Source: Candidatus Zhuqueibacterota bacterium
Lineage (GTDB): Bacteria; Zhuqueibacterota; Zhuqueibacteria; Thermofontimicrobiales; Thermofontimicrobiaceae
DNA: 42,667 nucleotides
NCBI GenBank assembly: GCA_049322915.1
Contig: JBMOPW010000041.1
Location: forward strand, 1 to 42,667
Reading direction: 5' to 3'
Positions 722 to 41,533 of this stretch are shown here, piece after piece. Positions within the stretch are counted from its first letter, which is position 1. Every line of letters starts with the position of its first letter. Under the pieces are notes generated by a model, which was given only the letters and a program-made list of their open reading frames with translations, had not been told where the DNA came from and ran no database searches. The translations under genes were made by a program, and so were the position numbers.

Positions 722-754
722 AGATTTTTCCTCGCGCGTGCGATTTATCCTGTT

Positions 755-2494: not shown

Positions 2495-4120
2495 GATTGA
2501 CTCCTTTAATAACTCGAGAGCAGTAAAAATTAGAATCTTTATCGACTTCTAAAGACGTTTGATTATAAGTATATCAGTTATTTAATTGAATATTCGCTTT
2601 ATTAAAAAGTAGTCCTGGCAAAGCACTCACTCTGAATAGCGCATGAACTGATGTTTTGAATTCATATCCTATACCTCGTTTTAACATGGATATTCAAAAT
2701 GATGATCTTCATTTGATTGAGTTTACAGCTAATTTTTAAAACGAATTAATTGCCAGCCAATATAATAAGGGCTACTACCAAAAGTAGAAATCGTCAAACG
2801 GTATTGCACGGGAGAATTTCGGCAAATAATTAAATAGGTAATTTGAGCCCCAATCCTAAAATAACCAGTTTTTACGGAGGAACTACTTGTTTGATGATTT
2901 TCCAAATATCGCCATTCATTTCTGGTGGGGTTGGCGATACTTAGAGATACAAAAGTATCACTTGCATATAATTCCGAACTTGAAACAAGATATTCTCCAG
3001 TCCAATTTCCTGTTTCCTTTAAATAAACCTGAACATAGCTGCCATATTTTCGGAACGCCAGATAAACATCCTCATAGAAAATCGGACTAGCATCATCATA
3101 AGGGTAAATACCCGACCTTAAAAGGCAACCAGCGATTGAGCCATTCGCGACATCCTGTAAATCTGAATCAAGCCGTTCGTTGGGTACCGTGCCGCTGGAC
3201 AAATTGGAGGCATTCAGATTGGTAACCGACGAACCGTTAATTCGCTCAGATGGGACGGAGCCGGATGCAAGATTGGAGGCATTTAGACTGGTAATCGATG
3301 CACCATTTCCGGAGAGGGTGTTAGCTGCGACGTTACCGCTTACCGACATTGCCGAAGAAGTGACCGTGCCATTTACCGTTAAGGGTTGGGTCGGATTTGT
3401 TGTTCCGATTCCAACGTAGCCATTATTCGCCACGGTCAAAACCGTTGTGGCGCCGCTCACCACCTGCACCGAGCCGGAGCCATTATCATCAGCGTCGGTC
3501 GTGATGATCACATTGCCATTATTGGTCAATGACGACGCCGAGCCGCCAAAATAGGCGCTGGAGAGCGAGGAGCCATCGTCGAATAGAATTGAGCCATTGC
3601 GCATTTTCAGATTACCGTTGATGTCCAGCGCCTGCTCCGGCGTGACATTGAGTCCAATTTTACCATTGGCGTCCACGGTCATCACGCCGCCGCCCGGCGC
3701 TGAGCTCTCGATCTTCAACAGATTATCCCCGGTATTCTGAGTTTTGATGTGCAACCCGGCAGCCGGGCTAACAATGCCCACACCCACATTTCCGATCGAT
3801 GGGAACGTATTTTTTGTGCCGAAAACAGACATGGCCGCCGGCGCTTTTTGAAGCTTCATGCGCGGTTCCAATTCCTGGTCGCCTTCAACGGAAATACCGA
3901 GAAAATACTGGGCGTTGAACGATAAATTTGTGAGCGCTACCTGGGACCCCAATTCCACAATAAAAACGCCATGTTTGACATCGACGCTGCCCTGGGTCTC
4001 GGTCCATAATGCTGTTCCGCCGATTGCGACGTCATAAATTCGAAAGGTGAGGCTATAGGCGCCATCAGCTACACTTCTTCCTAATGGATCTCTGAGTACT
4101 CCCTGAATCGAAAAAGTCTC
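1712..4120. repeat. Direct repeat of ~710 bp (approx. 1712-2425 vs 3407-4120) encoding the shared fibre N-terminus
   Basis: Constant offset of 1695 nt at the points checked (e.g. ctcaccacctgcaccgagcc at 1761 and 3456); many differences are synonymous. Confidence 0.9.
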
Positions 4121-22908: not shown

Positions 22909-24681
22909 TCACTGTACGAATATCAATTTCTTGTAACTTGAAAATATACCTGAATTCAACTGGTAAAAATAAATCCCGGATGCAGCCTGTCGAAATTGGC
23001 TATCTGTTCCGTACCAGACAATTTCATGCTTTCCTGCGGAGAGAAATTCATCTGTTAAAATTTTTATAACCTTTCCGGTGATGTCGACAATCCTGAGTTT
23101 CACATGCCCGGATTCCGGCAGATGGAAAGCAATTTTTGTGGCGCTGTTGAACGGGTTGGGATAATTCTGAAACAGCTCAAAATTCTTCGGCACGGTTTCA
23201 GCATTCGGCTGCTCAACCGACGTGGAAAAAGTGGACGCACGCGAAGAGACAATCACCGGATTTTCAACGTTTTGCGCCAGTTGCTCCCCATCGGCTTTGC
23301 TTAAATTCCCCGGTAAAAAATAGGCGGTGAAACCCAGCTCCAGGCTGACGCTGTCCTGGTCCAGGTTTTTGAACAGAATCCCCTGGTCGCCAAAAGACAC
23401 ACTGTCCCCGGTATCTCCGCCCTGGACGAACGATTCGTCTCCCTGGCCACCCCCGCGGTTGTCGTAAAAATAGAGGTCCGTGCTCAGCCAGCTCTGGTCT
23501 TCAAACGTCACGTGCGCGAACATGGAGCCCTGGTTGCCGCTGGTCAGCGTCCATTCTTTGATGGGCGTGTCAATGGTTTTGACCGGCGAGTCCGGCATGC
23601 CATCGATCAGAATGCCGTCGTTGCAGGCATTGTAGAATTTCATGCCGGAAGCGGCTTCGTTGAAATCCCATGACTGCCGGAGGAGATCCAGTTCGACAAA
23701 AATATCCTCATCGGTGTGGAATTCCTTTTTCAAATCCTCGGGATTCAGTTTGGCGCCGCCAGCGATGGCGCCGCTGAATGGGTAAAATTTTGTACGCACA
23801 TAAAATGCGATTTCATCCAGCACAAACTCGCCGAAACGAATGGTCTGCCGCACTTCGCGGACGAGGCGCACCACGGGTTTGGGCGTCACCCAGAGATGGT
23901 AATTATCCGGATCGAATTCATTGTACAGATAAATATTGTCACGTTCGTTGGCTGCCGGATTGTTCCCTTTGCCGATGGGAATGGTGATATAGCCAAAATC
24001 GAGGACGCCGATGAAGCGGAGTTTCTGCGTGTCAAAAATGTCCCGGCCATTCCCCAGGGGCGGGTGAATGGCGATGTCTTCGATCAGGCCGGTGGTGTTG
24101 CTCAGGCGAACCGAGTAATTCCTGTTGCTGACGCACCCGCTTTCCGCATCAAAGGCGAATGAGTAGGGAGTGGGAATTTCCTCGCCAATGGAGGCGGAGC
24201 GATAGAGATAGCCATAGCGACAATCGCCGGGATCGCTCGGGGACATGACTTTTAACTCCAGTCTCGGGTGGGATTTGGATTCCTGGTCCGGAATCCACGC
24301 CGAGTCCGGCGCTGCATCGCCCAGATCCCGGATCAGGAACACCAGTTCATCTCTGGAATCCAACAGGCCATCATCCGGCACGGAATAAAAATCCTGCATG
24401 GCGCTCGTCACCCCGGGCTTGAAGGGGTCTTCCGCAAAAATCATCTCATCGATCTGAAACGGGATCATGGCCCAGGCATGGGAATTTTCGTTGTAAGCGT
24501 AAAGATAAAGCTGATCGATGGAGGCGTCGTAGAATGATTTCAGCGCATCGCCGCGAATGACCACGGGCTCATAGATTCGATCGCTGGCAAGATCGGCGCC
24601 GGTCAGTTTTGCGGCCAGAAAAAATGCAGTGAGGCACGCTGAAAAAAGGATGGTTCGCAGCATTGATACATCAGTTTTCAC
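22909..24681 (-). CDS. Secreted protein of unknown function with C-terminal T9SS-A/FlgD-like sorting domain
   Basis: GTG start with AAGGAG RBS; signal peptide; C-terminus 'FELFQNYPNPFN..WYGTD..SGIYFYQL..KKLIFVQ'; acidic Asp-rich body. Confidence 0.82.
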   Translation of the reverse strand: MKTDVSMLRTILFSACLTAFFLAAKLTGADLASDRIYEPVVIRGDALKSFYDASIDQLYLYAYNENSHAWAMIPFQIDEMIFAEDPFKPGVTSAMQDFYSVPDDGLLDSRDELVFLIRDLGDAAPDSAWIPDQESKSHPRLELKVMSPSDPGDCRYGYLYRSASIGEEIPTPYSFAFDAESGCVSNRNYSVRLSNTTGLIEDIAIHPPLGNGRDIFDTQKLRFIGVLDFGYITIPIGKGNNPAANERDNIYLYNEFDPDNYHLWVTPKPVVRLVREVRQTIRFGEFVLDEIAFYVRTKFYPFSGAIAGGAKLNPEDLKKEFHTDEDIFVELDLLRQSWDFNEAASGMKFYNACNDGILIDGMPDSPVKTIDTPIKEWTLTSGNQGSMFAHVTFEDQSWLSTDLYFYDNRGGGQGDESFVQGGDTGDSVSFGDQGILFKNLDQDSVSLELGFTAYFLPGNLSKADGEQLAQNVENPVIVSSRASTFSTSVEQPNAETVPKNFELFQNYPNPFNSATKIAFHLPESGHVKLRIVDITGKVIKILTDEFLSAGKHEIVWYGTDSQFRQAASGIYFYQLNSGIFSSYKKLIFVQ

Positions 24682-26117: not shown

Positions 26118-28490
26118 CTATCTCAGTAATGCCATCTTCTTAGAACTAACAAAATCACCGGCTTTGATCTGATATAGATAAATTCCCGAGACTACCTGAT
26201 TGCCCCCGTCATCTTTTCCATCCCAATGAATCGTGTAATAACCAGCCGGCTTTTTTTCGTTGATCAATTCCACGATCTCCTGCCCCAGTGAATTGTAGAC
26301 CTGAATCACGACCGGGCAGGTCGTGGGCAGTTGAAAATAGAACGTCGTTCCGGCATTGAATGGATTGGGAAAGTTTTGTAACAGAGCAAATCCATTGGGA
26401 ATTGAGTGTTGAAAAAGTGCAGCGACCTCAGCCACGATGGAGCCCTGTTCCGACCACAAGCTTTCATTTCCAGAAAAATCGATTGCCGACACTTGGTAAC
26501 AGTAACTATGCCCGGAATCAATACGGGCGTCAACGAAGAACGTGTCGCTAGTCGTTCCGTAGGCGATGGCCGTTGCGGGATCGAATCCACTCTCTGTCTC
26601 CCGATAGACTGCGTAGTAATCAAAATCCTCATCAATGACACCGTTCCAGCGGATGACAGCCTGCCAGTCGGTTCCCGATTTATGTTGAGAAATGGTCACT
26701 CCGGTTGGTGGCGACGGCGCGAGGTTGTCCACGGAATAGCCGCTGTCAGGGTCGCTTAGCACAAATTTCCCGGGATCAGAACAATGGGCGGAAACCATGA
26801 ACACGGACCAGGGAATGCCAGCAGCCGTGGAATCCGCCAGCGTCGTTGCGACACAAGCGTATTGGGTAAATTGACAGGCCGGGATCGAGATGACAAAATC
26901 CCAGAGTTCATTATTCGCCGTCATCAGACGACCAATTTTACACTCAGAAGAATTGGTTTGGGGAATCAGTTCGGAAATCCTATGCATCGGATACGATGGT
27001 GATCGTGACAATCCCGTCCGATCAGCGACCCGCCGCCAGATGGCGTAGTGCGTGGTTTCGTGCCGGTTGCTGCGACCGTCAAAATAATCCGGAGCCCAGA
27101 TAATGCGCACTTGTTTGCCCTGATCATTGGCAATATCGGATATCGAATGAATCTTGACAAACACCTTCGCCCCCAACGCCCCGATATTGGCGCCGCTTTC
27201 ACCGGCGCCAATGCACGGAGAATCCGGCAATAAATAATAATCATGGAGATGCGCCGCTGCGATATTGGGATAAAGGATAAATTCGTGGGAGGAAAGCGGC
27301 AGCCCTTTAATCGGACCCTGGCCGTTCTGCCAATAACAATTGTAATCGTGAATAAAATCCGTCGGCGTGCCGGACAGTTCGATCGCTTCGTCAGTGGTCA
27401 GGGTAATGATGTTGTTTTTGATCGTCATTGCCTTGGGATCAGTGCCCAGCGCAATTCCATCGTATCGGTAAACGTTGAGAATGGTATTGTTGATAATCTT
27501 GATGGATTCCGAGTTGTCGATCTGAATGCCATGGAATTCATTGCTATCGATCACACAGTAGGTGACGTCGATCAACTCGCTATTAAAAATTCCAATTCCA
27601 TTGCCATGCCAGGCTGAGAGTTCATCATTATTGTGGATGTAGTTTTTCGTGATCAGGCAGTGGCGGCAATTATCAAGGACGATCCCGGAATGGCCTTTGG
27701 TCACTTCAAAGCCAGCAATTTTACACCAGGAGACATTCTGAAAGCTGATGCAGTTGAAGATTCCCTGATTTCCGGCGGCGGTGATGACGCAGGCATTGCT
27801 GCCATCCTCGTTTCGGGAGCCCAGTAATTGCAGATGATCGATGCGCTCATTGACAATAGTGCTATTGATCTGATAAACGCCCGGCGCGACGGCCACCGTA
27901 TCCCCTTCGCTGGCTGCGTCGATCGCTGCCTGAATCGTCCCATAATCCGCCGGCACGTGAATCACATTCCCGTGCACTGGCAGATACTCTTCAATGACCG
28001 CGATCAGCTCAGCTTCATGATACGATACTTTCAAGTAACGCACGACCATTGTCGGATCGATGATCACGTAGCGCGGAACCATCCACTCCGGACCTCCGTA
28101 ATCGGCCCAGATAAAGGCATCGCGATCCAAAAGCCAGGGGTACGTGATGCTGAGTGAATCGATCCAGGCGGCGACCGTCGCCGCATTTTCACCAATGTTG
28201 ATACCGATGACCTGCAAACCCCGCATTCGATACGGCTGCCAGATGTTATTTTCGACAAGCGGTGTTTCCGAATTGCAGTCGGGGCACCATGTTGTACAAA
28301 AGTGTAGCAGAATACAAGAACCCTGATAATTGTTCAGGGAAACGTTATTCCCGTTGCAGTCCCGGAGCGTGAAATTGGCGACAGTATCCCCCACACTGTA
28401 TTGAGCCAGCGCCAAATCAACAGTGACGAGGAAAAACAGGCTGTTGATTAAAAGGCATGTGATTTTCAGTTTCGAAAAATTTGTCGTCAT
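26118..28490 (-). CDS. Secreted multidomain protein: TlpA/AhpC-TSA redoxin + right-handed beta-helix + FN3-like + T9SS-A/FlgD-like sorting domain
   Basis: Signal peptide; 'NFTLRD.NGNNVSL....G..ILLHF.TTWCPDC'; 'IHVPADYGTIQAAIDAASEGDTVAVAPGVY' plus NN ladders; 'DNLAPSPP..W..DFDYYAVYR..Y.VSAIDFSGNES'; 'LLQNFPNPFN..WDGKD..SGIYLY..KKMALLR'; AAGGAGG RBS. Confidence 0.88.
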   Translation of the reverse strand: MTTNFSKLKITCLLINSLFFLVTVDLALAQYSVGDTVANFTLRDCNGNNVSLNNYQGSCILLHFCTTWCPDCNSETPLVENNIWQPYRMRGLQVIGINIGENAATVAAWIDSLSITYPWLLDRDAFIWADYGGPEWMVPRYVIIDPTMVVRYLKVSYHEAELIAVIEEYLPVHGNVIHVPADYGTIQAAIDAASEGDTVAVAPGVYQINSTIVNERIDHLQLLGSRNEDGSNACVITAAGNQGIFNCISFQNVSWCKIAGFEVTKGHSGIVLDNCRHCLITKNYIHNNDELSAWHGNGIGIFNSELIDVTYCVIDSNEFHGIQIDNSESIKIINNTILNVYRYDGIALGTDPKAMTIKNNIITLTTDEAIELSGTPTDFIHDYNCYWQNGQGPIKGLPLSSHEFILYPNIAAAHLHDYYLLPDSPCIGAGESGANIGALGAKVFVKIHSISDIANDQGKQVRIIWAPDYFDGRSNRHETTHYAIWRRVADRTGLSRSPSYPMHRISELIPQTNSSECKIGRLMTANNELWDFVISIPACQFTQYACVATTLADSTAAGIPWSVFMVSAHCSDPGKFVLSDPDSGYSVDNLAPSPPTGVTISQHKSGTDWQAVIRWNGVIDEDFDYYAVYRETESGFDPATAIAYGTTSDTFFVDARIDSGHSYCYQVSAIDFSGNESLWSEQGSIVAEVAALFQHSIPNGFALLQNFPNPFNAGTTFYFQLPTTCPVVIQVYNSLGQEIVELINEKKPAGYYTIHWDGKDDGGNQVVSGIYLYQIKAGDFVSSKKMALLR

Positions 28491-29587: not shown

Positions 29588-32500
29588 TTATTTCACATGG
29601 AGCATCTTTTTTGTCTCGACAAAGGCGCCGGCCTGAATCCGATACAGATACAGCCCGGAATTGAAATGCACTGTGGACAAATGGATACGATGCGTTCCGG
29701 CGTCGAATTGATCCCGGGCCAGCGTTGCAATTTCGCGCCCCAACAGGTCGTAAATTTTGAGCGTGACGAACTCCCGATGCGGCAGCGTAAACAGGATGGT
29801 GGTCGTGGCGTTGAATGGGTTGGGATAATTCTGCGCCAGTGTGTAGCGCTCGGGTTGATGTTCGCTTTCATCTTCTATCACCGGTGTGTTCATCTGAAGT
29901 CCGGCGCCGATCATCAAATCGCGCTTATCCCAGGGATCGCCGTCGTCGATAAAATTGCTCCAGGCCGCGCCATCGAAATACCAGCTTCGGCCGGCATAGG
30001 GAAAATCCTCGTCGTAACCCAGCGACGGTTCCCCGCCGGCCAGCCATTCCATGCTGATGTAGAAATTGCCGGAGTTGATCTGAATATTTTTCGCGGATAA
30101 ATCGACTGTGTTCCAGGCATTGCCCTGCGGCGTGAACGTCACGGGACTGGCGAGCAACGCCGAACCTGGTACACCGGCGCTGCCGTTGTCGTCGATTACA
30201 TTCAGTTTCAGCGAGGCGGCATCTCCGTAAATATAAAAATTGACAAAGCTCAATTTCGCCGGATACGTCGGTGGCGTGAATTCCACGGCCAGGCGCTCGC
30301 CCGCACCTGTGACATACACGCCGCCTTCATGGGTGCCGTCGTCGTAAAATAGCTCTGTGGCGCGGTGATTGTTGATCACTGCATATTTCTCAGCAGCCCG
30401 GCTGGCGCTTTGCCGAAGATCGGAAAGATCGTATCCGGCAGCCAGGGCAATGGTGAAACGTGCGCTTTTGCCGGGCGATAAACTGATCTTCGGGGCTGTC
30501 AGCAAAATGGATAAATCGCCCTGACCGATGGAACCCATGGCCCCCGAGGCATTCATCAACTCGAACATGATTTGATCCAGCAGGTCGCTCGTCTCGTACA
30601 CTGTATTGGCATTGTTAATGATTTTGAATGAATAGGGGGTGGCATTGAGAAGCGCCACTCCAAGATAATCATTGCCTGTGGCGCCGCTGTCCCACATGTA
30701 GCCCAAACGCAGGTCCGAAGCGTATGTGGCGTCGTTGGTTTCGTAGTTCGGCTGGCAGTCCCAATCCATGAGAAATCCTAACAGGAGATTGGTGAGCGTT
30801 GCGTCGCCGTCATTCATAATTTCATAATCCAGCAGAATGAATTGGTCGTACGGCGCAGCATTCCAGGAATAGCTGTGCTGGTTGACCGTGAGATGCGCCA
30901 GACCGTTGGGTGAAGTCAGGTATTTTTCGAACTGGGCGAACGTCTCTGTATCGGCGACCATGCTGGATTCAATGACGCGGGATTTGCCGGTGGCCGTGGT
31001 GCGCCAGGTATCGTCCTCGCAGTGATTGAGATTGCCATAGCTATCGGCCATGTCCTCGCCCCAGACGCCGGCGATGAATGTGCCGCTATAACCATGGTCT
31101 GTGCCGGCGGATTTGGGAAATGTGAATCCCGGATCCCCGCCGCTGGCGTTGCCAACGCCGCCCCAGTCCGATAGCCCGCAATTCACCTTCCCGCTCTCCT
31201 GCTGAAATGCGCTGCCGGCAAGACTCCCTTCGACCAGATCCAGCGCCGCGCTGATGTCCAGCTTGCCATGCCCCCAGTATCGATTCCAGACTGCGCCGGT
31301 ATAATCGTCGATTGTCGCGCTGCTGGTGAGAATATCTTTGAGTTGATCCGGCGTCAACCGGGGATTTTTTTGGAACAGCAGGGCAATCGCGCCGGCCACA
31401 TGAGGCGACGCCATACTCGTTCCCTGCATGAGCGTGTGAACGCCGTCCTCGACAATGCGCGTTTCGCTCGGTTCGCTATCCGCGGAAAGCACCGACGTGA
31501 TGCCGTGGCCGGGAGCGGTGAGTTCCGGTTTTGCCCGGCCATCGCGGGTCGGCCCGGGACTGCTGAAGCTGGAAATGTCCCACAATGCCGGATTCGATGT
31601 GTAGAAATAATGCCCGCCGTCCGAGGCGTCCCATTCGCGCTTGGTGCAATAGGATGCGACAGTGATCGCCTCGCGCGCTGTGCCAGGCACGCTGACGAGC
31701 ATGGTCCAGTCCAGATTGGAAGTGAATTCCACATCCGAGGATGACCAGGCGTCGAAACGGCCGTCGCTGATCTGATTGCCGCGAAGCTGAAAACTCCAAT
31801 CGCCATCTGCCACAGCGGTTCCGGCGTCATCGCTCACATAAATGCAGAAGCAGAAGTCCTGATTTTCAGGAGATTTCGAAGGCGCGATAATCTCAATTTT
31901 CCCAGCATCGGTTTCGTAACTCTGCCAATCCTCGGCGCTGCCAGAAGCAAATGCCGTGGTGGTGTAGCCGTTGGGCGCAGTGACTGTCAGCGTCATTCGG
32001 TCGCTGCCTTCGTGCCAGATATTGATGAAAAAATCCTCGCTGTTCTCCGCGACCGTGAACGTGGTCGTGACCGTTTCCGAAGCGAAGACCTGACCGCTGG
32101 CATGGAGGGGCAAATCACCTTCGTTGCCGGCAGAAATGACGATGGCTTTGCCGGGTCCGACAGCTTCATCAAAAGCCAATTCGTGCAACTCGGTGCCATC
32201 GTGAGCGCCCCAGTGACCGCCAAGGCTGAAATTGATCACCACCGGCCGGCCAAGTTCATCCGCTTTTTGCCTGACATAGGCCGCGCCGTTGATCTGGTTG
32301 TAGGTCGAAAAACTGTAATCCCCGCCTTTCACGAAAATCAAATCAGCCTGAGGCGCCATGCCAATGTACCGTTTCGCCTGATAGCCATTGCCGGTCGCGG
32401 AACCATCGCCGCCGGCAATCCCGGCCACGTGGCTGCCGTGACCATTAATGTCTTTTTCGCGAACCAGCCCGGCCGGGCTGCCATCGATTTCATTATTGAT

Positions 32501-33109
32501 CTGCGCTCGCGTGTATTCTGTGCCATAATCATAGCCGGCCGGATGCGGCCCGGCGTCATCGGTTTGATCCCAGAGATAGAGGATGCGCGAATTCCCCATC
32601 GCATCGATAAAATCCTCGTGCTTCCAATCGATGCCGGAATCGAATATCGCGACCAGCACGCCGTCCCCGCGATACGAAGGATTGCCGTCATAGACTTGAT
32701 CGACTTCCGTGGAAATTCGGCTCACATCCAGGCACGGCGGGATGATTCGGGAAATGTCTATCCACTCGACTTTTGACTCATGCGTCAGATTGAATATGCC
32801 CTGCTGCGTCGCTCGCGCCGTTGCAATGGAGCCGATGGTTGCGCTGATCGAGACGCCTGGGACGTCGAGCGCAGAAGCCGAGTCGCTGAATTTAATGATC
32901 ACGTGATACACCGTTTCGCCCGACTCAGTGGACGTTTCAAATGTGTCGCGATACCGGTCGAGCGCTGCCGCCTGTTTCTTCAAAACAAATTTCAGGCCGG
33001 GTGAACATTTTTGTAATTGCCGATTGGATAACTCCGTCCCGTTACTTTGGATGAATGAAATGCTCAGGAAAATCAATGAAAACATGGAGAACCGGAATAA
33101 CCTGTACAT
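29588..33109 (-). CDS. S8 (subtilisin-like) serine peptidase with accessory domains and C-terminal sorting domain
   Basis: Catalytic triad IFDSGID / HGSHVAGIAG / GTSMASPHVAG; 'SAGNEG'; 'LAQNYPNPFN..KKMLHVK'; ATG 33109 follows GAGGAG (ORF track starts at 33145). Confidence 0.95.
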   Translation of the reverse strand: MYRLFRFSMFSLIFLSISFIQSNGTELSNRQLQKCSPGLKFVLKKQAAALDRYRDTFETSTESGETVYHVIIKFSDSASALDVPGVSISATIGSIATARATQQGIFNLTHESKVEWIDISRIIPPCLDVSRISTEVDQVYDGNPSYRGDGVLVAIFDSGIDWKHEDFIDAMGNSRILYLWDQTDDAGPHPAGYDYGTEYTRAQINNEIDGSPAGLVREKDINGHGSHVAGIAGGDGSATGNGYQAKRYIGMAPQADLIFVKGGDYSFSTYNQINGAAYVRQKADELGRPVVINFSLGGHWGAHDGTELHELAFDEAVGPGKAIVISAGNEGDLPLHASGQVFASETVTTTFTVAENSEDFFINIWHEGSDRMTLTVTAPNGYTTTAFASGSAEDWQSYETDAGKIEIIAPSKSPENQDFCFCIYVSDDAGTAVADGDWSFQLRGNQISDGRFDAWSSSDVEFTSNLDWTMLVSVPGTAREAITVASYCTKREWDASDGGHYFYTSNPALWDISSFSSPGPTRDGRAKPELTAPGHGITSVLSADSEPSETRIVEDGVHTLMQGTSMASPHVAGAIALLFQKNPRLTPDQLKDILTSSATIDDYTGAVWNRYWGHGKLDISAALDLVEGSLAGSAFQQESGKVNCGLSDWGGVGNASGGDPGFTFPKSAGTDHGYSGTFIAGVWGEDMADSYGNLNHCEDDTWRTTATGKSRVIESSMVADTETFAQFEKYLTSPNGLAHLTVNQHSYSWNAAPYDQFILLDYEIMNDGDATLTNLLLGFLMDWDCQPNYETNDATYASDLRLGYMWDSGATGNDYLGVALLNATPYSFKIINNANTVYETSDLLDQIMFELMNASGAMGSIGQGDLSILLTAPKISLSPGKSARFTIALAAGYDLSDLRQSASRAAEKYAVINNHRATELFYDDGTHEGGVYVTGAGERLAVEFTPPTYPAKLSFVNFYIYGDAASLKLNVIDDNGSAGVPGSALLASPVTFTPQGNAWNTVDLSAKNIQINSGNFYISMEWLAGGEPSLGYDEDFPYAGRSWYFDGAAWSNFIDDGDPWDKRDLMIGAGLQMNTPVIEDESEHQPERYTLAQNYPNPFNATTTILFTLPHREFVTLKIYDLLGREIATLARDQFDAGTHRIHLSTVHFNSGLYLYRIQAGAFVETKKMLHVK

Positions 33110-33350
33110 GCTGCGCTCCTCGGAAAAGAGATGAAACCGCTTCAACCATTCAGGCGCGATCTGTCAATGACTGCCTGCCAGTTGCGTGAGAGAAATCGGA
33201 GCGGCCAGCGCAATCCGGTTAAAGTGAATGGAAATCTATTCCAGCCGCTTGCTCCGGCCGGATTGCACGGAACCGCACTCCATCGGGACTATCGATGCCA
33301 GTGGGTTGATCGACGTCCAGGACGAGATTTCAAGGGAAAAAACGAAGCTT

Positions 33351-33379
33351 AGATTACAAAATAATTCCTCAAAAATCAA
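33351..33379 (-). promoter_or_regulatory. sigma70-type promoter for the S8 peptidase
   Basis: Minus strand TTGATT-17 nt-TAATCT. Confidence 0.45.
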
Positions 33380-33939
33380 GAAAAAATTGGGTCATCGAAA
33401 ATTCGCATCGACGGGTGGCGGTGACTACGGACGAGCAACAGTGGATTCAGTGTGAAAATCAATCAGTGGTTTTGAACCTGCCACCGGAAAAACTGAAGAA
33501 TAAACAGCGTAAGCTGTACAACTTTATTATTTAATTCTTGAAATTTTGTATTTCTTTTTGTATTATTATTACGTAAAAATTGAACTGAATTGCACGCAAA
33601 GAAGTCGCGATTAGCAGCATCATCGGAGGCCCGAGCCTGGTGCATTCGTCATGACGAGGCTGGCGCAACAAAGCCGGCGACCTTCCCGACCAGGCGGCGA
33701 GAGAGTCAGGCGCACTTTTTAATTTCCCCGGCATTCTACATTGATCAAACGTGTTCGCTCCATGGACGAAAAAGCGCGCGAATGATTTGCTATTATGAAA
33801 AGCCTTCCAGATGTTCATCATCCTTGAGCCACAACATCGCGCTGGCGGTGTATCCAGCAAGGGGAATGGATACTACATCGTTCGGAACAAATCTCTACAA
33901 ACCGGCACACGTATTCTGTCGACCGGATAGGAATTTCCA

Positions 33940-36558
33940 ATGAAAATTGGCCAAACAATATCGCATTATAATATAGTAAAAAAACTCGGCGAAGGCGGCA
34001 TGGGTGTGGTATACAAAGCCTTTGACACAAACCTGGAGCGGGAAGTGGCGTTGAAAGTGCTCTGTCCCGAAGCTATTGGTGACCCGGCTGCAAAGGAACG
34101 ATTCATCCGCGAAGCCAGGGCTGCCAGCGCGCTGAATCATCCGAACATAGCGACGATTTATGAGATCGATGAAAGCCATGATCAGGATTTTATCTGCATG
34201 GAATACGTTGAAGGCGAGACCATCAAAACAAAAATCCAGTCAGGTCGATTGTCAATGGATGAAGTGCTGAACATTGCAATGCAAATCGCTGAAGCTCTGC
34301 ATGAAGCTCATGAACATGAGATTATTCACAGGGACATCAAGTCAGAGAATATCATGGTCACGTCCAGGGGACAGGTGAAGGTGATGGATTTTGGCCTGGC
34401 CAAGTTCAGAGGTTCCGGAGGCGTCACAAAGATTGGCACGACAATGGGCACGGTCGCCTATATGTCGCCGGAACAGGTACGAGGCGAAGAAGTCGATTTT
34501 CAGTCGGATATATGGTCGCTGGGCGTTGTCCTTTATGAGATGATTACCGGGAAATTACCATTTGGAGGTGAGTTTGATCCGGCAGTTCTTTTTTCCATTG
34601 TTCAGGATACACCTAAACCAATGGCAGCTTTTACGGATGATGTACCTGCCTTCGTGCAATGGATTGTTGATAAAGCGCTGGAAAAAGACCGGGAGAGACG
34701 GTATCGTTCTGTCGCTGATTTTATCGATGATTTGAAAGGGAAGAAAAAAGGGAGCGCCTTCTCCAGAAAGAATTTTTCCTTCAAAAATTTTATAGTGAAA
34801 AAAATTCGTACTGCAGCATGGATCGCGATATCCATGCTGATGGTAGCGCTTTTCTATTTTATAATTATCAAACAGAATGCAGGGAAAACCGAACACTCTC
34901 AGCACACCCAGATCACCTTCTCTGGTGAAGCAAGTTACCCGGCTATTTCACCAGATGGCAATTTTATCGCGTATATCGTTGGCTCACAGGGCGACCAAAA
35001 GCTGATGGTGCAGGAATTGGCTGGCGGACGACCGCTGGAGATTTTCTCGGGACTTAACTTCTTAACCTTGAAGTGGTCGCCGAACGGCGCTGAACTGATC
35101 ACGACAGTGACGTTTAAAGACTCGAATGGTGGAACATTTTTTGTTCCTCGTCGGGGAGGTGCTTCTCGCCGCGTAAGAATCGGCGCTCTTCTATCCCCTT
35201 CGCCGGATGGCTCTCACATTGCGGCTATCTCCTTGTATGGGAAGGAAATAATGCTGTTCAATACGACCACTTCAGCTTTTGAAGAAAATACCATCCCATT
35301 GAATGGCACATACGAATGGTTGCTTGACCTGGATTGGTCGCCATCGGGGAATCGAATTCTCATTCAAATCGCGAAGAAACAGGGACAATCGAGCATCTGT
35401 ACCATCAGAACTGATGGTAGTCAACAACAGCAAGTAGTCGAAGACAGTGTTGTCCTATATTCTCCTCGCTGGTCTGGTGGCGGAGATGCTATTTATTACA
35501 TGAGGTCGAATGGACCGACCCGAGATTTTATGAAAGTGCCGATTTCGACGGCTACAGGAGAAGCAAAAGCACAGCCCAATATTCTTCAGTCTGGTTTACA
35601 AGCCGGCGATTATTTTTCATTATCAAGGAATAATAAGCGAGTACTTTATAGTCGCGAGTTGAGTTATTCAAATTTATGGCTGGTTCATCGTGACGGAACA
35701 GGCGCTGCAAAGACGAAACAACTCACGACAGGCACTTCGTGGATTCATTGGCCAGCAATTTCACCAGATGGGAAATGGCTGGCCTTTAGCATTGGCGATC
35801 ACACTCGTGCAAATATTTTTGTGATGCCAATCGAAGGCGGCTCCAGTCGACAATTAACTTTCTCTGAATACTATAACGCCAGCCCAGCATGGGATTCGAG
35901 TGGAAAGGAAATAGCGTACGGTTCGACTGAAGATGGAAAACCACGAGTATGTAAGATCAGGATTAATGGTGGAACACCACGAATTTTTGAAAAAACTGAT
36001 TTGAGTCCTGATGGATTATCAGTTACCTGGGCTAGTGACGGTCACATCCTGTACCAACTCCCGGGAAATCGGAATTTTCAGATTCTCAATCCACAAACCA
36101 CAGAGGAGCGTGCTCTGGTAGCTAATGATTCAGTTGGTTGGATGTTTAATCCGTGCTTTTCACCCGATGGCAAAAGCGTAGCTGTTATGTGGAATCGACG
36201 AGAGCCAGGCAAGCCAGCGCGGGGTCCAACGAGCGCCGGTGGCATCTGGCTGATTTCTCTCGAAGATTCTGCTCTGACTTTTTTATTAAAAGGGGACTTC
36301 TATCCCATCGGGTGGTCGCCTGATGGGAAGGGGATTTATGCCTGGAATCCCAATAAAAAGCCCATGGAAATCTTGATAGTTCCTGTCAACGGTGGTAAAC
36401 CAGAAGCGATCATCACCTTACCTTTTGAAAATTTTATTATGAATGGTATCAGCGTGACCCCTGACGGGAATAAAATTGTCTGCGCTGTGTTTGAAAAGCG
36501 GTCCGATGTCTGGCTGATGGAAAACTTTGACCCTGATGTCGGGAACGAAAGGCGGTAG
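33940..36558 (+). CDS. Hanks-type Ser/Thr protein kinase, single TM, extracytoplasmic TolB-like (PD40) beta-propeller
   Basis: LGEGGMGVVYKA, VALKV, HRDIKSEN, DFG, GTVAYMSPE; TM 'AAWIAISMLMVALFYFIII'; many 'P.[WIF]SPDG..[IL]A' repeats. Confidence 0.95.
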   Translation: MKIGQTISHYNIVKKLGEGGMGVVYKAFDTNLEREVALKVLCPEAIGDPAAKERFIREARAASALNHPNIATIYEIDESHDQDFICMEYVEGETIKTKIQSGRLSMDEVLNIAMQIAEALHEAHEHEIIHRDIKSENIMVTSRGQVKVMDFGLAKFRGSGGVTKIGTTMGTVAYMSPEQVRGEEVDFQSDIWSLGVVLYEMITGKLPFGGEFDPAVLFSIVQDTPKPMAAFTDDVPAFVQWIVDKALEKDRERRYRSVADFIDDLKGKKKGSAFSRKNFSFKNFIVKKIRTAAWIAISMLMVALFYFIIIKQNAGKTEHSQHTQITFSGEASYPAISPDGNFIAYIVGSQGDQKLMVQELAGGRPLEIFSGLNFLTLKWSPNGAELITTVTFKDSNGGTFFVPRRGGASRRVRIGALLSPSPDGSHIAAISLYGKEIMLFNTTTSAFEENTIPLNGTYEWLLDLDWSPSGNRILIQIAKKQGQSSICTIRTDGSQQQQVVEDSVVLYSPRWSGGGDAIYYMRSNGPTRDFMKVPISTATGEAKAQPNILQSGLQAGDYFSLSRNNKRVLYSRELSYSNLWLVHRDGTGAAKTKQLTTGTSWIHWPAISPDGKWLAFSIGDHTRANIFVMPIEGGSSRQLTFSEYYNASPAWDSSGKEIAYGSTEDGKPRVCKIRINGGTPRIFEKTDLSPDGLSVTWASDGHILYQLPGNRNFQILNPQTTEERALVANDSVGWMFNPCFSPDGKSVAVMWNRREPGKPARGPTSAGGIWLISLEDSALTFLLKGDFYPIGWSPDGKGIYAWNPNKKPMEILIVPVNGGKPEAIITLPFENFIMNGISVTPDGNKIVCAVFEKRSDVWLMENFDPDVGNERR

Positions 36559-36599
36559 TAACAATAACGCATATCAAAAAGGGAGCGAAGGAGGGTAAA

Positions 36600-38162
36600 T
36601 TGAAAACTCCGATTAATAAATCTGAGCCAAGTCACTCCATAAATGATATCCAAAATCAATTCGTCATCCTCAAAGCCGCGAATCGCATCGCGCATTTATT
36701 GAGCAAGACAATACCCCTTGAAAAAGCGATTGATCCGCTCATCAATGAATTCATTGAATTGACTCTGGCGGATTGTGGATCGATTCAACTATTGCGGCCG
36801 GGTTCACAGAAGACGCAACGAAATCTGATTCGAAAATGCACGCATGCTGATTGTGGCTTCGATAACCATCTGGAAAATTTAATCGCCGGTTGGATTTTGA
36901 AAAACCGTTCATCCCTCGTCACGTACGACATCACCACCCATATCAATCTCGGCGCAGTCGCGAAAAAATATTCGGACATATCGTCGTATATTGCAATACC
37001 AATTCCCTATCAGGAAAGTATCATCGGCGTGGTGACGGTGCTTCGGGTTAAACCATCAAGTCCATTTCCGGAAGAAGCTGAGTCGGTCTCGGCTTCGTTG
37101 GCGAAAGAGATCGCTGAATTCATCGAGCAGGCGAATATCCGTGAGCAATTATTCAGCGATTATCAGAAACTCCAGCAGGAGGTATCCGATCGCTATTCTG
37201 TTCACGGTATTCTGGGACGAGGCCCGGCCATGAAAGAGGTGTTCAATGTCCTGGAGCGCGTCATTCCGACAGAAGGGCGGGTACTGCTCCAGGGAGAGAG
37301 CGGCACCGGAAAAGAACGCATTGCCAAAGTTATTCATTATGAAGGTCCCAGAAAAGCCCGCCCTTTCATCGCTGTCGATTGCGGCGCGTTGCCCCCGAGC
37401 CTGCTGGAGAGCGAGCTATTTGGTCATGTGCGCGGCGCATTCACTGGCGCGGATCGGGATCGCCGCGGGCTGTTCGAGGAAGCGGATGGCGGCACTCTGT
37501 TCCTGGACGAGATCGCCAACACCACTCTGGAAACCCAGGCAAAACTGTTGCGCGTACTGCAGGAAGGAGAACTCCGCCCCATTGGCTCCAACCAGCCCCG
37601 CAAAGTGAATGTCCGGATCATCACTGCCGCGTCCATTGATCTGGATCAAAAAATCAAGAATGGTGAATTCCGCGCTGACCTATTTTACAGGCTCAATGTC
37701 GTTCCGATAAAATTACCATCGCTTCGGGAGCGGGTGGAAGATATTCCCACGCTGGCGGATCATTTCCTCATCCGTTTCGCGGAAAAGCATGGTAAGCAAT
37801 TAAAGCATATTTCGGCTGAAACGATCAAAGTAATGGAAAAGTATCCCTGGCCCGGCAATGTGCGGGAACTGGAAAATACTGTCGAGCGCGCGGTGATCCT
37901 TTCCAGGTCAACGGATACCACCATGAAACCGGAGCATTTGCCATTTGGTCTTTCATTTGGCGAATTGCAGCAACGACCCTCTGAACTCCCGCTCACCGGC
38001 AGCCTAGAAACGCTGCTTGCAAATTACGAGCGTGAGATTATTAAAAATGCGCTCGGTAAACATGGCTGGAACCAGTCTGCAGCGGCCAAGGAGTTGAATA
38101 TTTCCGAACGAACCATGCGGTATAAAATCCAGCGGCTGGCGTTGCTGTCGCCGAAAAAGTAG
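36600..38162 (+). CDS. sigma54-dependent transcriptional activator (GAF + AAA+ + Fis-type HTH)
   Basis: TTG start with AAGGAGG RBS; GAF-like N-terminus ('SYIAIPI....IIGVV'); GESGTGKE, ESELFGH, GAFTGA, LFLDEI, DLFYRL, WPGNVRELEN; HTH 'WNQSAAAKELNISERTMRYKI'. Confidence 0.95.
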   Translation: MKTPINKSEPSHSINDIQNQFVILKAANRIAHLLSKTIPLEKAIDPLINEFIELTLADCGSIQLLRPGSQKTQRNLIRKCTHADCGFDNHLENLIAGWILKNRSSLVTYDITTHINLGAVAKKYSDISSYIAIPIPYQESIIGVVTVLRVKPSSPFPEEAESVSASLAKEIAEFIEQANIREQLFSDYQKLQQEVSDRYSVHGILGRGPAMKEVFNVLERVIPTEGRVLLQGESGTGKERIAKVIHYEGPRKARPFIAVDCGALPPSLLESELFGHVRGAFTGADRDRRGLFEEADGGTLFLDEIANTTLETQAKLLRVLQEGELRPIGSNQPRKVNVRIITAASIDLDQKIKNGEFRADLFYRLNVVPIKLPSLRERVEDIPTLADHFLIRFAEKHGKQLKHISAETIKVMEKYPWPGNVRELENTVERAVILSRSTDTTMKPEHLPFGLSFGELQQRPSELPLTGSLETLLANYEREIIKNALGKHGWNQSAAAKELNISERTMRYKIQRLALLSPKK

Positions 38163-38390
38163 TCTGAAGTGATTCCGAGATAAAAGGCACCCGCAAAATC
38201 CCAAATGCCACATGACAGATGATTTTCAATAATTAAAAACGCAAATTCCAGGCACGTTACTGCTTCCTGAAAAACGCTAATTTGTTTGGGACTTGTCTGT
38301 TGTGGCTTGGAGTTCTGCTTTAGTTTCCTCCCATAATTTCTTACATTAAGCTTGTTTATCAACCTGAAGAGACCGATTGCCAAAAGTTAA

Positions 38391-38432
38391 CTCGGCAATA
38401 ATTGTCGAGTTCTTTCCCGACAAAATTGTCGG
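38391..38432. promoter_or_regulatory. Tandem palindromic upstream activator sequences
   Basis: CTCGGCAAT-a-ATTGTCGAG (38391-38409) and CCGACAA-aa-TTGTCGG (38417-38432), about 100 bp upstream of a -24/-12 element. Confidence 0.65.
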
Positions 38433-38528
38433 ATCCCAGTCTCATCAGTAGTCGTTCACAGAATTAACCTCCATTTAACTCTCATAAAACCATAGAGATA
38501 ATCCCAGGTTAAATTTTCCGATTTTTCA

Positions 38529-38544
38529 TGGCATGCGAATTGAA
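38529..38544 (+). promoter_or_regulatory. sigma54 promoter with variant -12 element
   Basis: TGGCATGCGAATTGAA: GG-N10-GA rather than GC; lies downstream of an activator gene and UAS pair. Confidence 0.55.
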
Positions 38545-38609
38545 TACTACATGCGAAAATGATAATTCAATTCACAACACAATTCATTTAAAACAAGATG
38601 GAGGTCGTT

Positions 38610-39305
38610 ATGACCAAAAAAATTATTCTTCTCAGTTTCGTCGCCTTCGCATTAATGGTAGGCGGTTGTTCTAAAGAATCTCCGGTAGCTCCGGATCAGA
38701 TGGAAACCGCTGCTGGCAACAGTCTGGCAAAGCAGACTGTCACCGCAGATCAATCCCAGTCCCGGTTATCGAGTCGGTGGGAGAATGTCTCGTTTCAAGG
38801 AACGGTTCTTCTCGGAATACATACGATCGACTTTGGAGATTTGGATGCTCTATGGAATGCCCTCGACAATGCAGATGCATTCGATGTGCCCTCCCGGTTC
38901 TCCCCAAATTATTATTTTTCTGTAGATGCTGGCGCAAAATCTATAAGTGGGTTCGGGGCCGTTCCAGGGGATGATATTGTCATTGCTGGCGTAAGTGGAA
39001 AATTGTGTTCCATATTGACTTATGAGCTGAATCCTGCTGAGGGGAAGCCTGGTCCGATGCGCGCTCGTTTAATTCATCTCTTTGAGGGAAAAGACGGTTC
39101 TTTCGTCACGATGGATCGAGCGGCTTTAGTACCCGTGGGTACTGATCCGAATGTATCCATGGTCAACGACTACCTTGAAATCATGGCCGGTACCGGCGTG
39201 TTTGAAAACGCGTCTGGAAGACTCACGAACCAAGGCATTATTGACCTTAATACTTTTACTCTTACAGTAAACCTAATCGGTCGTGTATCTGGTGATGGAA
39301 TATAG
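38610..39305 (+). CDS. Lipoprotein with dirigent/allene-oxide-cyclase-like beta-barrel C-terminus
   Basis: GGAGG RBS before ATG 38610; lipoprotein signal MTKKIILLSFVAFALMVGG/C; 'LEIMAGTGVFENASG' matches the I.GGTG.F..A.G signature. Confidence 0.7.
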   Translation: MTKKIILLSFVAFALMVGGCSKESPVAPDQMETAAGNSLAKQTVTADQSQSRLSSRWENVSFQGTVLLGIHTIDFGDLDALWNALDNADAFDVPSRFSPNYYFSVDAGAKSISGFGAVPGDDIVIAGVSGKLCSILTYELNPAEGKPGPMRARLIHLFEGKDGSFVTMDRAALVPVGTDPNVSMVNDYLEIMAGTGVFENASGRLTNQGIIDLNTFTLTVNLIGRVSGDGI

Positions 39306-39428: not shown

Positions 39429-39742
39429 GATTTAAACAGAAATAGATCTTTACTATCCCAAAATGCCTGTTAATGTTATTCCGCTCTTTAAACAACAATT
39501 GACTGAGAGGGAAAGCACCAGGCTCTTATCTCATGTAACGACTGGAACAGTGACCACCCATAATTAACTCAAAAACAGATAAGGGGACGATGTCCCCTTA
39601 GTCATTTTTTTCTTTTCAGTTGGAAAATGTAGTTTATAGAGCAAATATTTTACTTAATTAATTCAAGCAGGAGACTTGCTATCTATTTGAATTTGCTCTT
39701 TATAATTCAGGATAAATTTGTTTAGTTCAAGGAGGAAATACA

Positions 39743-41533
39743 ATGAGCAACATAGCAGTAATAAATAAGTTATTTTGGAAGACAATCTCACTTTTAATCA
39801 TCGGCGCATTATCGTTTCATAACGCTTGGGCTCAGGGATTTACAAGGCTCTCTACTTCTAGCTTGGGTCGCGATCTCGGTGGTTTTCTTGGTACAGCCTG
39901 GGGCGATTATGATAACGATGGATACGTGGACTTGTTTGTCGCCAATTGTAAAGGTCCCAACATGCTTTTCCATAATGATGGTATCAGAGGATTCACCAAA
40001 ATAACGACCGGAGAAATATCGACTGATCAGGCCAATTCATATAGTGCGAGCTGGGGTGATTTTGACAATGATGGTGACCTGGATTTATTTGTCGCCAATT
40101 TAAGTGGCACTAATTTCTTGTATCGTAATGATGAAGGTATCCTTGTGAGAATCAAAGAAGGTGTTGTTGTCACAAGCAGGGGCAATTCTACCAGCGGCAG
40201 TTGGGGTGATTACGATAATGACGGCGATCTGGATCTGTTCGTGACAAATGATACACAAAAAAATTTCCTTTATCAAAATAATGGGGACGGTACTTTTACA
40301 AAAATCACCAACAGCATCGTTGTCAACGACGTTATTGTGTCTTCGTTAGTAGGCTTATGGGCTGATTACGACAATGACGGCGATCTTGATTTATATGTAG
40401 TGAATGGATTTTTTTCCTTAAGTTCTAATTTCCTTTATCGTAATGAAGGGCTGGGAAATTTCACAAAAATTACAACAGGTAGCATTGTCACCGATGTCGA
40501 AGGATCGACTGGAGGAAGTTGGGGAGATTACAACAATGATGGTTACCTCGATCTGTATGTCTGCAATAGCGTCAATAATGCCCGGAATTCACTTTATCGT
40601 AATAATGGCAATGGCACTTTTACAAAAATATTCAACGGTAGTATTGTGACTGATACCGGTCATTCAGTTGGCAGCAGTTGGATTGACTATGACAATGATG
40701 GTGATTTAGATCTGTTTGTCGTGAATGTTTTTGCTGCAAATAATATATTATACAGGAACAATGGAAATGGAAGCTTCTCAAAAATTACATCTGGAGCAAT
40801 TGTAAATGATACCGGATACCCTTTTGGATGTAGCTGGGCTGATTTTGATAATGATGGCGATCAGGATGCAATTGTGACCAATGGTGGATTCAGTCTGACA
40901 ATGAATAACTTTTTTTATCGGAATGATCAGAGTCAACACAACTGGATTACGATTCAGCTTAAAGGAACTACGGGGAATTCTTCTGCGATTGGGGCTATGG
41001 TTCGTGTTAAAGCGACAGTCCTGGGGAAAACGATCTGGCAGGTGCAGCAGATTGCAGGACAGTCTGGTTTTTTAGGACAGAACAGTCTGGATGCTGAATT
41101 TGGTTTGGGTGATGCGACCACTATTGATTCAATAATCATTAAATGGCCGTCAGGTAATTTACAAGTGTTGACCGATGTTGAAGCAAATCAATTCCTAAAA
41201 ATAGTTGAAGAACAGACAACTGAGGTATTTCAAAAATTATCCAGTAAAGCGTCATTAGAATATAATTTAGCAGACAATTATCCCAATCCATTCAATGCCA
41301 ACACTATCATGGAATATCAAGTGACGCAAGCCGGGAATGTAAGAATCAATATTTTTAATCTGCTCGGTCAAAAAGTGATAACGCTTGTCGATGAAATGCA
41401 TCAGTCAGGACGCTATTCTATTTTATGGGATGGAATAGATGGAACAGGCAATTCTGTCCCATCCGGGATGTATTTTTATAAAATGGAAGCGGATAAATTT
41501 TCAGCGACGAAAAAAATGTTACTGCTCGAATAG
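39743..41533 (+). CDS. Secreted FG-GAP/VCBS-repeat (CRTAC1-like) protein with ASPIC/UnbV domain and T9SS-A/FlgD-like sorting domain
   Basis: Seven 'W.D[YF][DN]NDG..D...N...[LF][YF].N' repeats; 'NWITIQLKG..N.SAIGA.V..GFLGQN...EFGLG....IDSIIIKWPSG'; 'LADNYPNPFN..WDG.D..SGMYFY..KKMLLLE'; AAGGAGG RBS. Confidence 0.93.
   Translation: MSNIAVINKLFWKTISLLIIGALSFHNAWAQGFTRLSTSSLGRDLGGFLGTAWGDYDNDGYVDLFVANCKGPNMLFHNDGIRGFTKITTGEISTDQANSYSASWGDFDNDGDLDLFVANLSGTNFLYRNDEGILVRIKEGVVVTSRGNSTSGSWGDYDNDGDLDLFVTNDTQKNFLYQNNGDGTFTKITNSIVVNDVIVSSLVGLWADYDNDGDLDLYVVNGFFSLSSNFLYRNEGLGNFTKITTGSIVTDVEGSTGGSWGDYNNDGYLDLYVCNSVNNARNSLYRNNGNGTFTKIFNGSIVTDTGHSVGSSWIDYDNDGDLDLFVVNVFAANNILYRNNGNGSFSKITSGAIVNDTGYPFGCSWADFDNDGDQDAIVTNGGFSLTMNNFFYRNDQSQHNWITIQLKGTTGNSSAIGAMVRVKATVLGKTIWQVQQIAGQSGFLGQNSLDAEFGLGDATTIDSIIIKWPSGNLQVLTDVEANQFLKIVEEQTTEVFQKLSSKASLEYNLADNYPNPFNANTIMEYQVTQAGNVRINIFNLLGQKVITLVDEMHQSGRYSILWDGIDGTGNSVPSGMYFYKMEADKFSATKKMLLLE

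Follow-up and report, generated by a model that had tools for sequence, protein, structure and literature searches.

A membrane Hanks-type kinase gene beside a GAF-type σ54 activator gene: a possible signaling unit with a single lipoprotein target in a Zhuqueibacterota genome

In the textbook view, σ54-dependent transcription is switched on by activators that respond to a His-Asp phosphorelay, to a bound ligand or to a partner protein. Transcription factors are also within reach of Ser/Thr kinases: PknH-EmbR, PknK-VirS and AfsK-AfsR are pairs in which a Hanks-type kinase is encoded beside the transcription factor it phosphorylates, Mycobacterium tuberculosis PknD possesses an extracellular β-propeller, and σ54 activators bearing an FHA domain hint at such input. 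FHA-domain activators of Myxococcus reportedly link Ser/Thr-kinase signaling to σ54, as Jelsbak, Givskov and Kaiser are said to have described in 2005. Among the bacterial enhancer-binding proteins (bEBPs), those with a GAF domain constitute group 3 (NorR, NifA, FhlA) and are described as ligand-gated in the accessible part of PMC7175178; in the Vibrio alginolyticus PpkA2-VtsR route to type VI secretion system 2 (T6SS2), transcription changes once a cytoplasmic regulator has been phosphorylated by a Hanks-type kinase (accessible part of PMC10482370). A full-text search, with most subscription journals outside its coverage, retrieved no paper in which a GAF-type σ54 activator is the target of a Hanks kinase. 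Here, we analyze a 42,667-nt stretch of DNA from a Candidatus Zhuqueibacterota bacterium (contig JBMOPW010000041.1 of assembly GCA_049322915.1; hereafter the window), in which the gene for a membrane Hanks-type kinase precedes that for a GAF-type σ54 activator, followed by two palindromes, a −24/−12-like element and the gene for a small lipoprotein-like protein (Table 1). Wiring of the candidate enhancer and the σ54-type promoter to the lipoprotein gene is, in our assessment, probable, and the whole unit, including kinase input to the activator, falls somewhat short of an even chance.

Domain score and motifs place the first protein among the Hanks-type kinases, with catalytic machinery that, as judged from its residues, is intact. 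The Pkinase model matched residues 10–255 (nt 33967–34704) with 190 bits against a cut-off of 31.7, and the protein presents the GEGGMG G-loop at 17, VALK at 36–39 (K39), HRDIK at 130 (HRD 130–132), DFG at 150–152 and SPE at 176. Across an alignment of 30 kinase relatives, K39, E58, H130, R131, D132, N137, D150, F151, G152, P177 and E178 are invariant, and the nearest solved structures to the domain are of the PknB/PknA/StkP type (E 1e-52 to 1e-57). Hydropathy analysis revealed one strongly hydrophobic stretch only (aa 292–310, nt 34813–34869), preceded by the Lys/Arg-rich segment KNFSFKNFIVKKIRT, which argues for a cytoplasmic kinase domain and for a PD40 part outside the cytoplasm. This latter part, a PD40/TolB-like β-propeller region of ~560 residues (aa ~320–872), matched PD40 in Pfam with 83.6 bits (cut-off 20.9) and the TolB propeller model of NCBIfam at residues 598–748, and is predicted to be the periplasmic, or outer, sensor of the kinase. 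The protein carries a predicted sensor but no output domain. In other proteins, relatives of the sensor are joined to a winged-helix DNA-binding domain (P0118, PF00486), an adenylate/guanylate cyclase domain (P0090, PF00211) or a kinase with additional TPR repeats; such varied outputs fit a reusable, modular periplasmic signaling input.

The activator gene opens with a TTG codon, at the same alignment column at which its relatives begin. Its product shows a marginal GAF_2 match (aa 41–176; 29.5 bits vs. a cut-off of 28.6), for which the nearest solved structure is the GAF domain of PtsP (3ci6) at only E 3.9e-5, a Sigma54_activat match (aa 204–371; 227.8 bits vs. 20.2) with an AAA lid also present, and an HTH_8 match (aa 473–512; 49.6 bits), all in Pfam. 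Walker A (GESGTGKE, 232–239), GAFTGA (279–284) and the Walker B motif LFLDE (at 300) are invariant in 32 sequences, and the N-terminal tail (aa 1–20) is rich in Ser and Thr. No Response_reg match was obtained in Pfam at E ≤ 0.01, nor any FHA match in the scan that readily detected FHA in three activators of a background set described below (L017, L061, L074); the activator thus appears to be devoid of a membrane sensor, a receiver and an FHA domain. Scoring below the NCBIfam equivalog cut-offs for NifA (TIGR01817, 397.5 vs. 528.85) and NorR (NF003451, 338.4 vs. 476), it would by architecture be a group 3 (GAF) bEBP that is not filed as either of the two. The GAF region (nt 36774–36854, aa 59–85) also harbors C59, C80, H82 and C85, in the context ADCGS ... 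CTHADC. C59 is retained in the 19 closest activator relatives and C-x-H-x2-C in a 13-member clade around the window; in distant relatives, position 59 is Glu and the Cys residues are missing. Possibly, the GAF domain receives an input of its own through this Cys/His cluster, acting as a metal or redox site.

The spacer between the kinase and activator genes includes a strong ribosome-binding site, AAGGAGGG, whose 3′ end lies 4 nt upstream of the activator TTG, and no terminator-like site was found inside the 41 nt. Given this operon-like spacing on the same strand and the lack of a terminator in it, co-transcription of the two genes is likely.

Both palindromes downstream of the activator gene are built from one half-site, TTGYCG/CGRCAA, which occurs four times (at 38393, 38402, 38418 and 38426). 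When the window was shuffled 300 times under a first-order Markov model, no shuffle had four half-sites within 45 nt, and the 15-nt palindrome has no second copy elsewhere in the window beyond chance. Presumably, these palindromes are not of the NorR or NifA type. The −24/−12-like element TGGCATGCGAATTGA, the window's only exact match to TGGCAY-N5-TTGM, sits 106–130 nt downstream of the palindrome centers and 67 nt before the ATG at 38610. Its reading as a σ54 promoter is weakened by an expectation of 0.65 exact matches per window (at least one in 48 of 100 shuffles) and by a −12 dinucleotide that is GA, the canonical one being GC. With one mismatch allowed, the window holds 16 matches compared to 14.4 expected; the motif alone is not enriched, so the argument rests on position and strand. 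An inverted repeat (TGCGAATTGAAT / ATTCAATTCACA; 12 nt, 92% complementary, 19 nt apart) at 38532–38576 and a direct repeat of CATGCGAA at 38532 and 38550 were additionally noticed; both share positions with the −12 element and with the 5′ leader predicted for the lipoprotein gene.

For the lipoprotein gene, the ATG at 38610 is the likelier start, because GGAGG is found at 38600–38604 and because homologues and the database copy are 231 aa long. The N-terminus (MTKKIILLSFVAFALMVGGC) consists of KK, a hydrophobic stretch and then GGC, and the lipobox reads MTKKIILLSFVAFALMVGG-C24, its Cys24 being invariant in 6 homologues; signal and Cys together point to a lipoprotein. Gly at lipobox position −2 is unusual. 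No Pfam or NCBIfam family matched the protein, and a profile search returned 116 cluster representatives at E ≤ 0.001, mostly of 150–220 aa, that share the C-terminal ~110 residues. A structural model computed from a 60-sequence alignment (predicted local distance difference test, pLDDT, 84.7) is all-β from residue 61; with 6 sequences as input, the pLDDT had reached a poor 47.5. A β-barrel of the Dirigent/allene-oxide-cyclase (AOC)/DUF3224 kind was considered and not adopted for want of a significant sequence or fold match. Sub-threshold Dirigent/AOC matches appeared in 3 of 35 remote homologues scanned, and Foldseek against the PDB gave 0 matches at E ≤ 0.001, the best being dirigent proteins (6ooc; E 5e-3, template modeling score, TM, ≤ 0.33), with 2q03 at TM 0.52 on the target. 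A PDB profile search remained non-significant (best E 0.066), and the ESM Atlas pointed to hypothetical proteins of Bacteroidota and, weakly, to DUF3224 (12% of one cluster, score 0.86); for the modeled protein, an AOC-barrel-like fold may serve as a lead only. Across the wider family, Cys61 and Cys231 hardly vary (kept in at least 90% of 60 sequences). Trp61 and Ser231 take their place in the window's protein and in P0164, its closest relative, a replacement that looks like the paired loss of a probable disulfide.

An intrinsic-terminator-like hairpin follows the lipoprotein gene, so that the σ54-type unit appears to hold one gene. This bears on an earlier note on the locus, written from the letters alone, which had proposed a trans-envelope signaling module in which the kinase phosphorylates the N-terminal or GAF region of the activator and so switches on adjacent secreted cargo genes. 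Its anatomical description was reproduced throughout: a membrane Hanks kinase with one helix and an external PD40 domain, a GAF-AAA+-HTH (helix-turn-helix) activator 41 nt further on with neither receiver nor FHA match, and, where the note had placed them, the two palindromes, the −24/−12-like element and the lipoprotein gene. The plural "cargo genes" finds no support, as only one gene lies between promoter and terminator (39580–39600), and the subsequent FG-GAP/type IX secretion system (T9SS) gene has no −24/−12-like match within one mismatch before it. "Trans-envelope" overstates what is predicted to be a single-pass inner-membrane sensor. As for the signaling-module interpretation itself, the anatomy fits a self-contained kinase/activator/enhancer/promoter/lipoprotein unit, but the step from kinase to activator is only partly supported, as detailed below.

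Relatives of the activator were collected by searching with its residues 1–200, which gave 39 hits among 738 candidates, i.e. 38 relatives plus the window's own copy. Kinase relatives were retrieved with residues 290–872 and a length floor of 479 aa; this family is very large (3201 matches at E ≤ 0.001 among 8000 scored candidates), and the best 120 of the 3201 were listed, the weakest at 40% identity. Genes were placed on the same contig where their contigs had equal sizes in bp, a deduction that stops short of observed adjacency. On this basis, an activator relative lies on the contig of each of the two best kinase matches: P0044 (sensor part 64% identical) with P0013 (74%) on a 14137-bp contig, and P0045 (70%, a partial protein) with P0006 on a 4082-bp contig, the latter two both being KSB1 records. 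Searching with the lipoprotein produced 8 hits including the window's own copy, and the best relative (P0164, 84%) is located on the same 14137-bp contig, where we infer that the kinase/activator/lipoprotein trio has been kept together.

A tree was built from 32 activators, namely P0002 (the window's copy) and 31 of the 38 relatives, leaving aside seven partial sequences (P0014, P0018, P0026, P0027, P0031, P0033, P0038). The three kinase-linked activators (P0002, P0006, P0013) fall inside one nine-member subclade (support 97/98) without forming one clade: P0008 joins P0002 and P0006, P0011 pairs with P0013, and P0010 and P0012, both on long contigs without a listed kinase, are sisters. As the kinase-linked members span the basal splits of this subclade, the simplest reading would be that the pairing was ancestral to it and was lost once, with four members undecided. 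Four residues—S11, S13, Q18 and P416—are shared by all three kinase-linked activators and by none of the remaining six subclade members; the first three precede the GAF domain, in the N-terminal tail. Of 84 possible triples, the kinase-linked one ranks second by number of such columns (64 triples have none, 17 have one), and only the tree-supported triple P0002/P0006/P0008 has more (11 columns, at alignment columns 91–169 and 451). The tail signal hence seems to run against the tree and to track the kinase, offering Ser11 and Ser13 as a lead to phospho-acceptors.

How often kinases lie near σ54 activators in general was gauged from 80 activator loci of many phyla, retrieved via AAA+ motifs; these are unrelated to the present locus, with no KSB1 orthologue among them. 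Pfam assigned their N-terminal domains as receiver in 60 cases (two also with PAS), GAF in 14 and PAS only in 2, and recognized none in 4; three of the 14 GAF loci (L017, L061 and L074, from one Acidobacteriota and two Polyangiaceae metagenome-assembled genomes, MAGs) encode FHA-GAF-AAA+-HTH activators. A hidden Markov model made from 82 PD40-kinase hits was run on all open reading frames (ORFs) of at least 80 aa in flanks of up to 8 kb, and detected a kinase ORF within 8 kb at only 2 of the 80 loci, L007 and L070 (1 of 14 GAF and 1 of 60 receiver activators). In L007, from a Rhodothermales MAG, a GAF-AAA+-HTH activator gene (1813–3306) shares its last 22 nt with a Pkinase ORF downstream (3285–3974) that runs off the contig; the gene order is reversed relative to the window, the kinase domain is 38% identical, and the GAF domain is not alignable with that of the window, the BLASTP alignment starting at residue 127. 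L007 thus presents an independent GAF-activator/kinase pairing. L070, from a Kiritimatiellae MAG, has four genes closely spaced on one strand (263–3941): those for a receiver-type activator, for an unknown protein of 265 aa, for a soluble kinase of 300 aa and for a sugar transferase. No kinase ORF was found within 8 kb of the three FHA-bearing activators, so kinase wiring need not appear as adjacency.

Against a functional link between kinase and activator stand several observations. Among the best 120 kinases, one shares a contig with only 2 of the 38 activator relatives, and 13 relatives (P0010, P0012, P0014, P0021, P0024, P0028, P0029, P0032, P0034, P0037, P0039, P0041 and P0043) are on contigs of at least 12.5 kb without a listed kinase there. 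The remaining 23 lie on contigs of at most 10.8 kb, where a kinase of at least 479 aa may not fit, and count neither way. Two of the 13, P0010 (77%) and P0012 (76%), are as close to the window's activator as is the kinase-linked P0013 (74%), and a kinase orthologue beside a 76%-identical activator would be expected well above the 40% identity floor of the list. With 13 relatives showing no such kinase, the activator family would work without it, and the GAF domain must then be able to gate the activator alone. The kinase's next relatives (52–55% identity) share no contig with any listed activator relative, and the pairing is confined to part of the one nine-member subclade, with no sign of it outside. 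Synteny among relatives of ~75% identity can be inherited without function, PD40 kinases are so abundant that a chance neighborhood has to be reckoned with in a genome rich in kinases, and the tail signature comes from three sequences, with kinase status undecided in 4 of the 6 "others". The conserved pairing and shared Ser/Thr residues that the earlier note proposed to look for are borne out in part: the pairing recurs on two other contigs, once with the lipoprotein, but has no listed counterpart for the 13 relatives on long contigs, and S11 and S13 are common to the three kinase-linked members, though to three sequences only. The kinase would best be read as a lineage-restricted input added to an ordinary GAF-type activator.

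Many of these points suit a picture in which the two genes are independent neighbors: a one-component GAF-type bEBP gated by ligand, metal or redox state, next to a kinase, one of many of the PD40 type, with other substrates and no signal flow between them. Their adjacency, and even a shared transcript, would then be a gene order peculiar to the lineage. The huge kinase family and the 13 relatives without a listed kinase would be as expected, C59, C80, H82 and C85 in the 13-member clade could be the activator's own sensing site, and the three FHA activators without a kinase within 8 kb caution that adjacency and wiring need not coincide; ligand gating is also how GAF-type bEBPs are classed in the accessible part of PMC7175178. 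Unexplained by independence are the operon-like 41-nt spacing, the trio kept on the 14137-bp contig, a tail signature that tracks the kinase against the tree, the separate, overlapping GAF-activator/kinase pair in L007 and the low background rate of 2 in 80, and we accordingly grant this picture a sizable but minor share of the probability. If it held, the locus would be an ordinary GAF-type activator beside a kinase.

Any modulation of the activator by the kinase is, on balance, a near-even proposition leaning slightly to the negative. In the mechanism we propose, the activator would bind the palindromes via its HTH domain, oligomerize and use ATP to open the σ54 promoter of the lipoprotein gene, with the AAA+ domain restrained by the GAF domain in the manner of other GAF-type activators. 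The kinase would add a periplasmic input, most simply by phosphorylating Ser or Thr in the activator's tail or GAF domain, for which Ser11 and Ser13 are candidates. Direct phosphorylation of the activator by the kinase is doubtful at present. Still less likely is the full relay from Hanks kinase to σ54 activator in which neither receiver nor FHA domain is needed, the propeller senses an envelope cue—possibly the lipoprotein, closing a feedback loop—and phosphorylation of Ser11/Ser13 relieves GAF repression of the AAA+ ring; if it were true, the L007 pair would imply more than one origin of such relays in the Fibrobacterota–Chlorobiota–Bacteroidota (FCB) group.

Control by anti-activator contact, as in NifL-NifA and PspA-PspF, offers a model for a link without activator phosphorylation, be it through such contact, a third protein or PD40 sensing of the lipoprotein in a feedback loop. 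The same synteny and operon evidence applies to it, the 14137-bp contig has the lipoprotein together with the pair, and bEBPs under protein partners in trans form an accepted class (group 4, accessible part of PMC7175178), but it is quite improbable: the kinase keeps every catalytic residue, which argues for catalysis over scaffolding, and lipoprotein relatives also occur on a 106608-bp contig without a listed activator relative.

Table 1. Features of the kinase–activator–lipoprotein locus and its flanks in the window
Feature	Position	Strand	Description
S8-peptidase/T9SS gene	29588-33145	-	1185-aa subtilase; divergent from kinase gene
Hanks-type Ser/Thr kinase gene	33940-36558	+	872 aa; ORF and Pfam
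Kinase–activator spacer	36559-36599	+	41 nt; contains ribosome-binding site AAGGAGGG (36588-36595)
GAF-AAA+-HTH σ54 activator (bEBP) gene, P0002	36600-38162	+	520 aa; TTG start
Palindrome 1, CGGCAA-TAA-TTGTCG	38393-38407	.	candidate upstream activating sequence; center ~130 nt upstream of −24 GG
Palindrome 2, CGACAA-AA-TTGTCG	38418-38431	.	candidate upstream activating sequence; center ~106 nt upstream of −24 GG
σ54-type −24/−12-like element, TGGCATG-N4-TTGA (GG-N10-GA)	38529-38543	+	TGGCATGCGAATTGA
Small lipoprotein-like protein gene, P0003	38610-39305	+	231 aa from ATG 38610; alternative ATG 38598
Intrinsic-terminator-like hairpin	39580-39600	+	9 pairs and T run; closes lipoprotein unit
FG-GAP/ASPIC/T9SS gene	39743-41533		Pfam

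The window has a G+C content of 40–57%, and no known RNA family was detected in it with Rfam; rpoN was not among the window ORFs scanned. Among the closest relatives of the kinase and the activator, those that bear a name are labeled candidate division KSB1, and with this and the T9SS tails noted below the window is taken to come from a KSB1-type member of the FCB group. Between the S8-peptidase gene and the kinase gene lies an intergenic region of ~800 nt (33146–33939), whose small ORFs look non-coding (Cys/Arg-rich). No −24/−12-like match within one mismatch was found in this region upstream of the kinase, and a σ70-like site is present at 33538–33566. T9SS sorting tails or FlgD-Ig-like C-termini mark the products of four genes (22909–24681, 26118–28490, 29588–33145 and 39743–41533), including a peroxiredoxin/β-helix fusion, in a neighborhood rich in secreted proteins. 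At the left end of the window, beside unannotated ORFs, the minus strand encodes a 579-aa protein with phage tail collar and Gp10 baseplate C-terminal domains (755–2494).

Should the proposed kinase input be real, a unit this compact, running from sensor kinase and activator through enhancer and promoter to one target, would make an easily reconstituted model of this route to σ54, and would give a first handle on the cues sensed by the abundant PD40-propeller kinases of KSB1, Zixibacteria, Gemmatimonadota and Acidobacteriota.

Compared with described systems, the locus combines familiar parts in a different arrangement. Like NifA, NorR and FhlA, the window's activator has an N-terminal GAF domain, a central AAA+ domain with GAFTGA and a C-terminal Fis-type HTH, and its candidate binding sites lie ~100–130 nt upstream of a −24/−12-like element; unlike in these systems, a Hanks kinase gene precedes it. 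As with NtrB-NtrC, a sensor kinase gene adjoins a σ54 activator gene with candidate enhancer and promoter nearby, but the window's pair has neither histidine kinase nor receiver, the latter being carried by 60 of the 80 background activators. In contrast to the Myxococcus FHA activators, there is no FHA domain, and thus no phosphothreonine reader, and the kinase gene is adjacent; a kinase link would consequently need direct phosphorylation or contact. VtsR, unlike the window's activator, is not described as a σ54 activator in the accessible part of PMC10482370 and belongs to a T6SS context. In the Hanks kinase–regulator pairs, as here, a membrane kinase with an extracytoplasmic sensor is encoded beside a cytoplasmic regulator; what sets the window apart from them is a partner that is an AAA+ σ54 activator and a sensor that is a PD40/TolB-like propeller.

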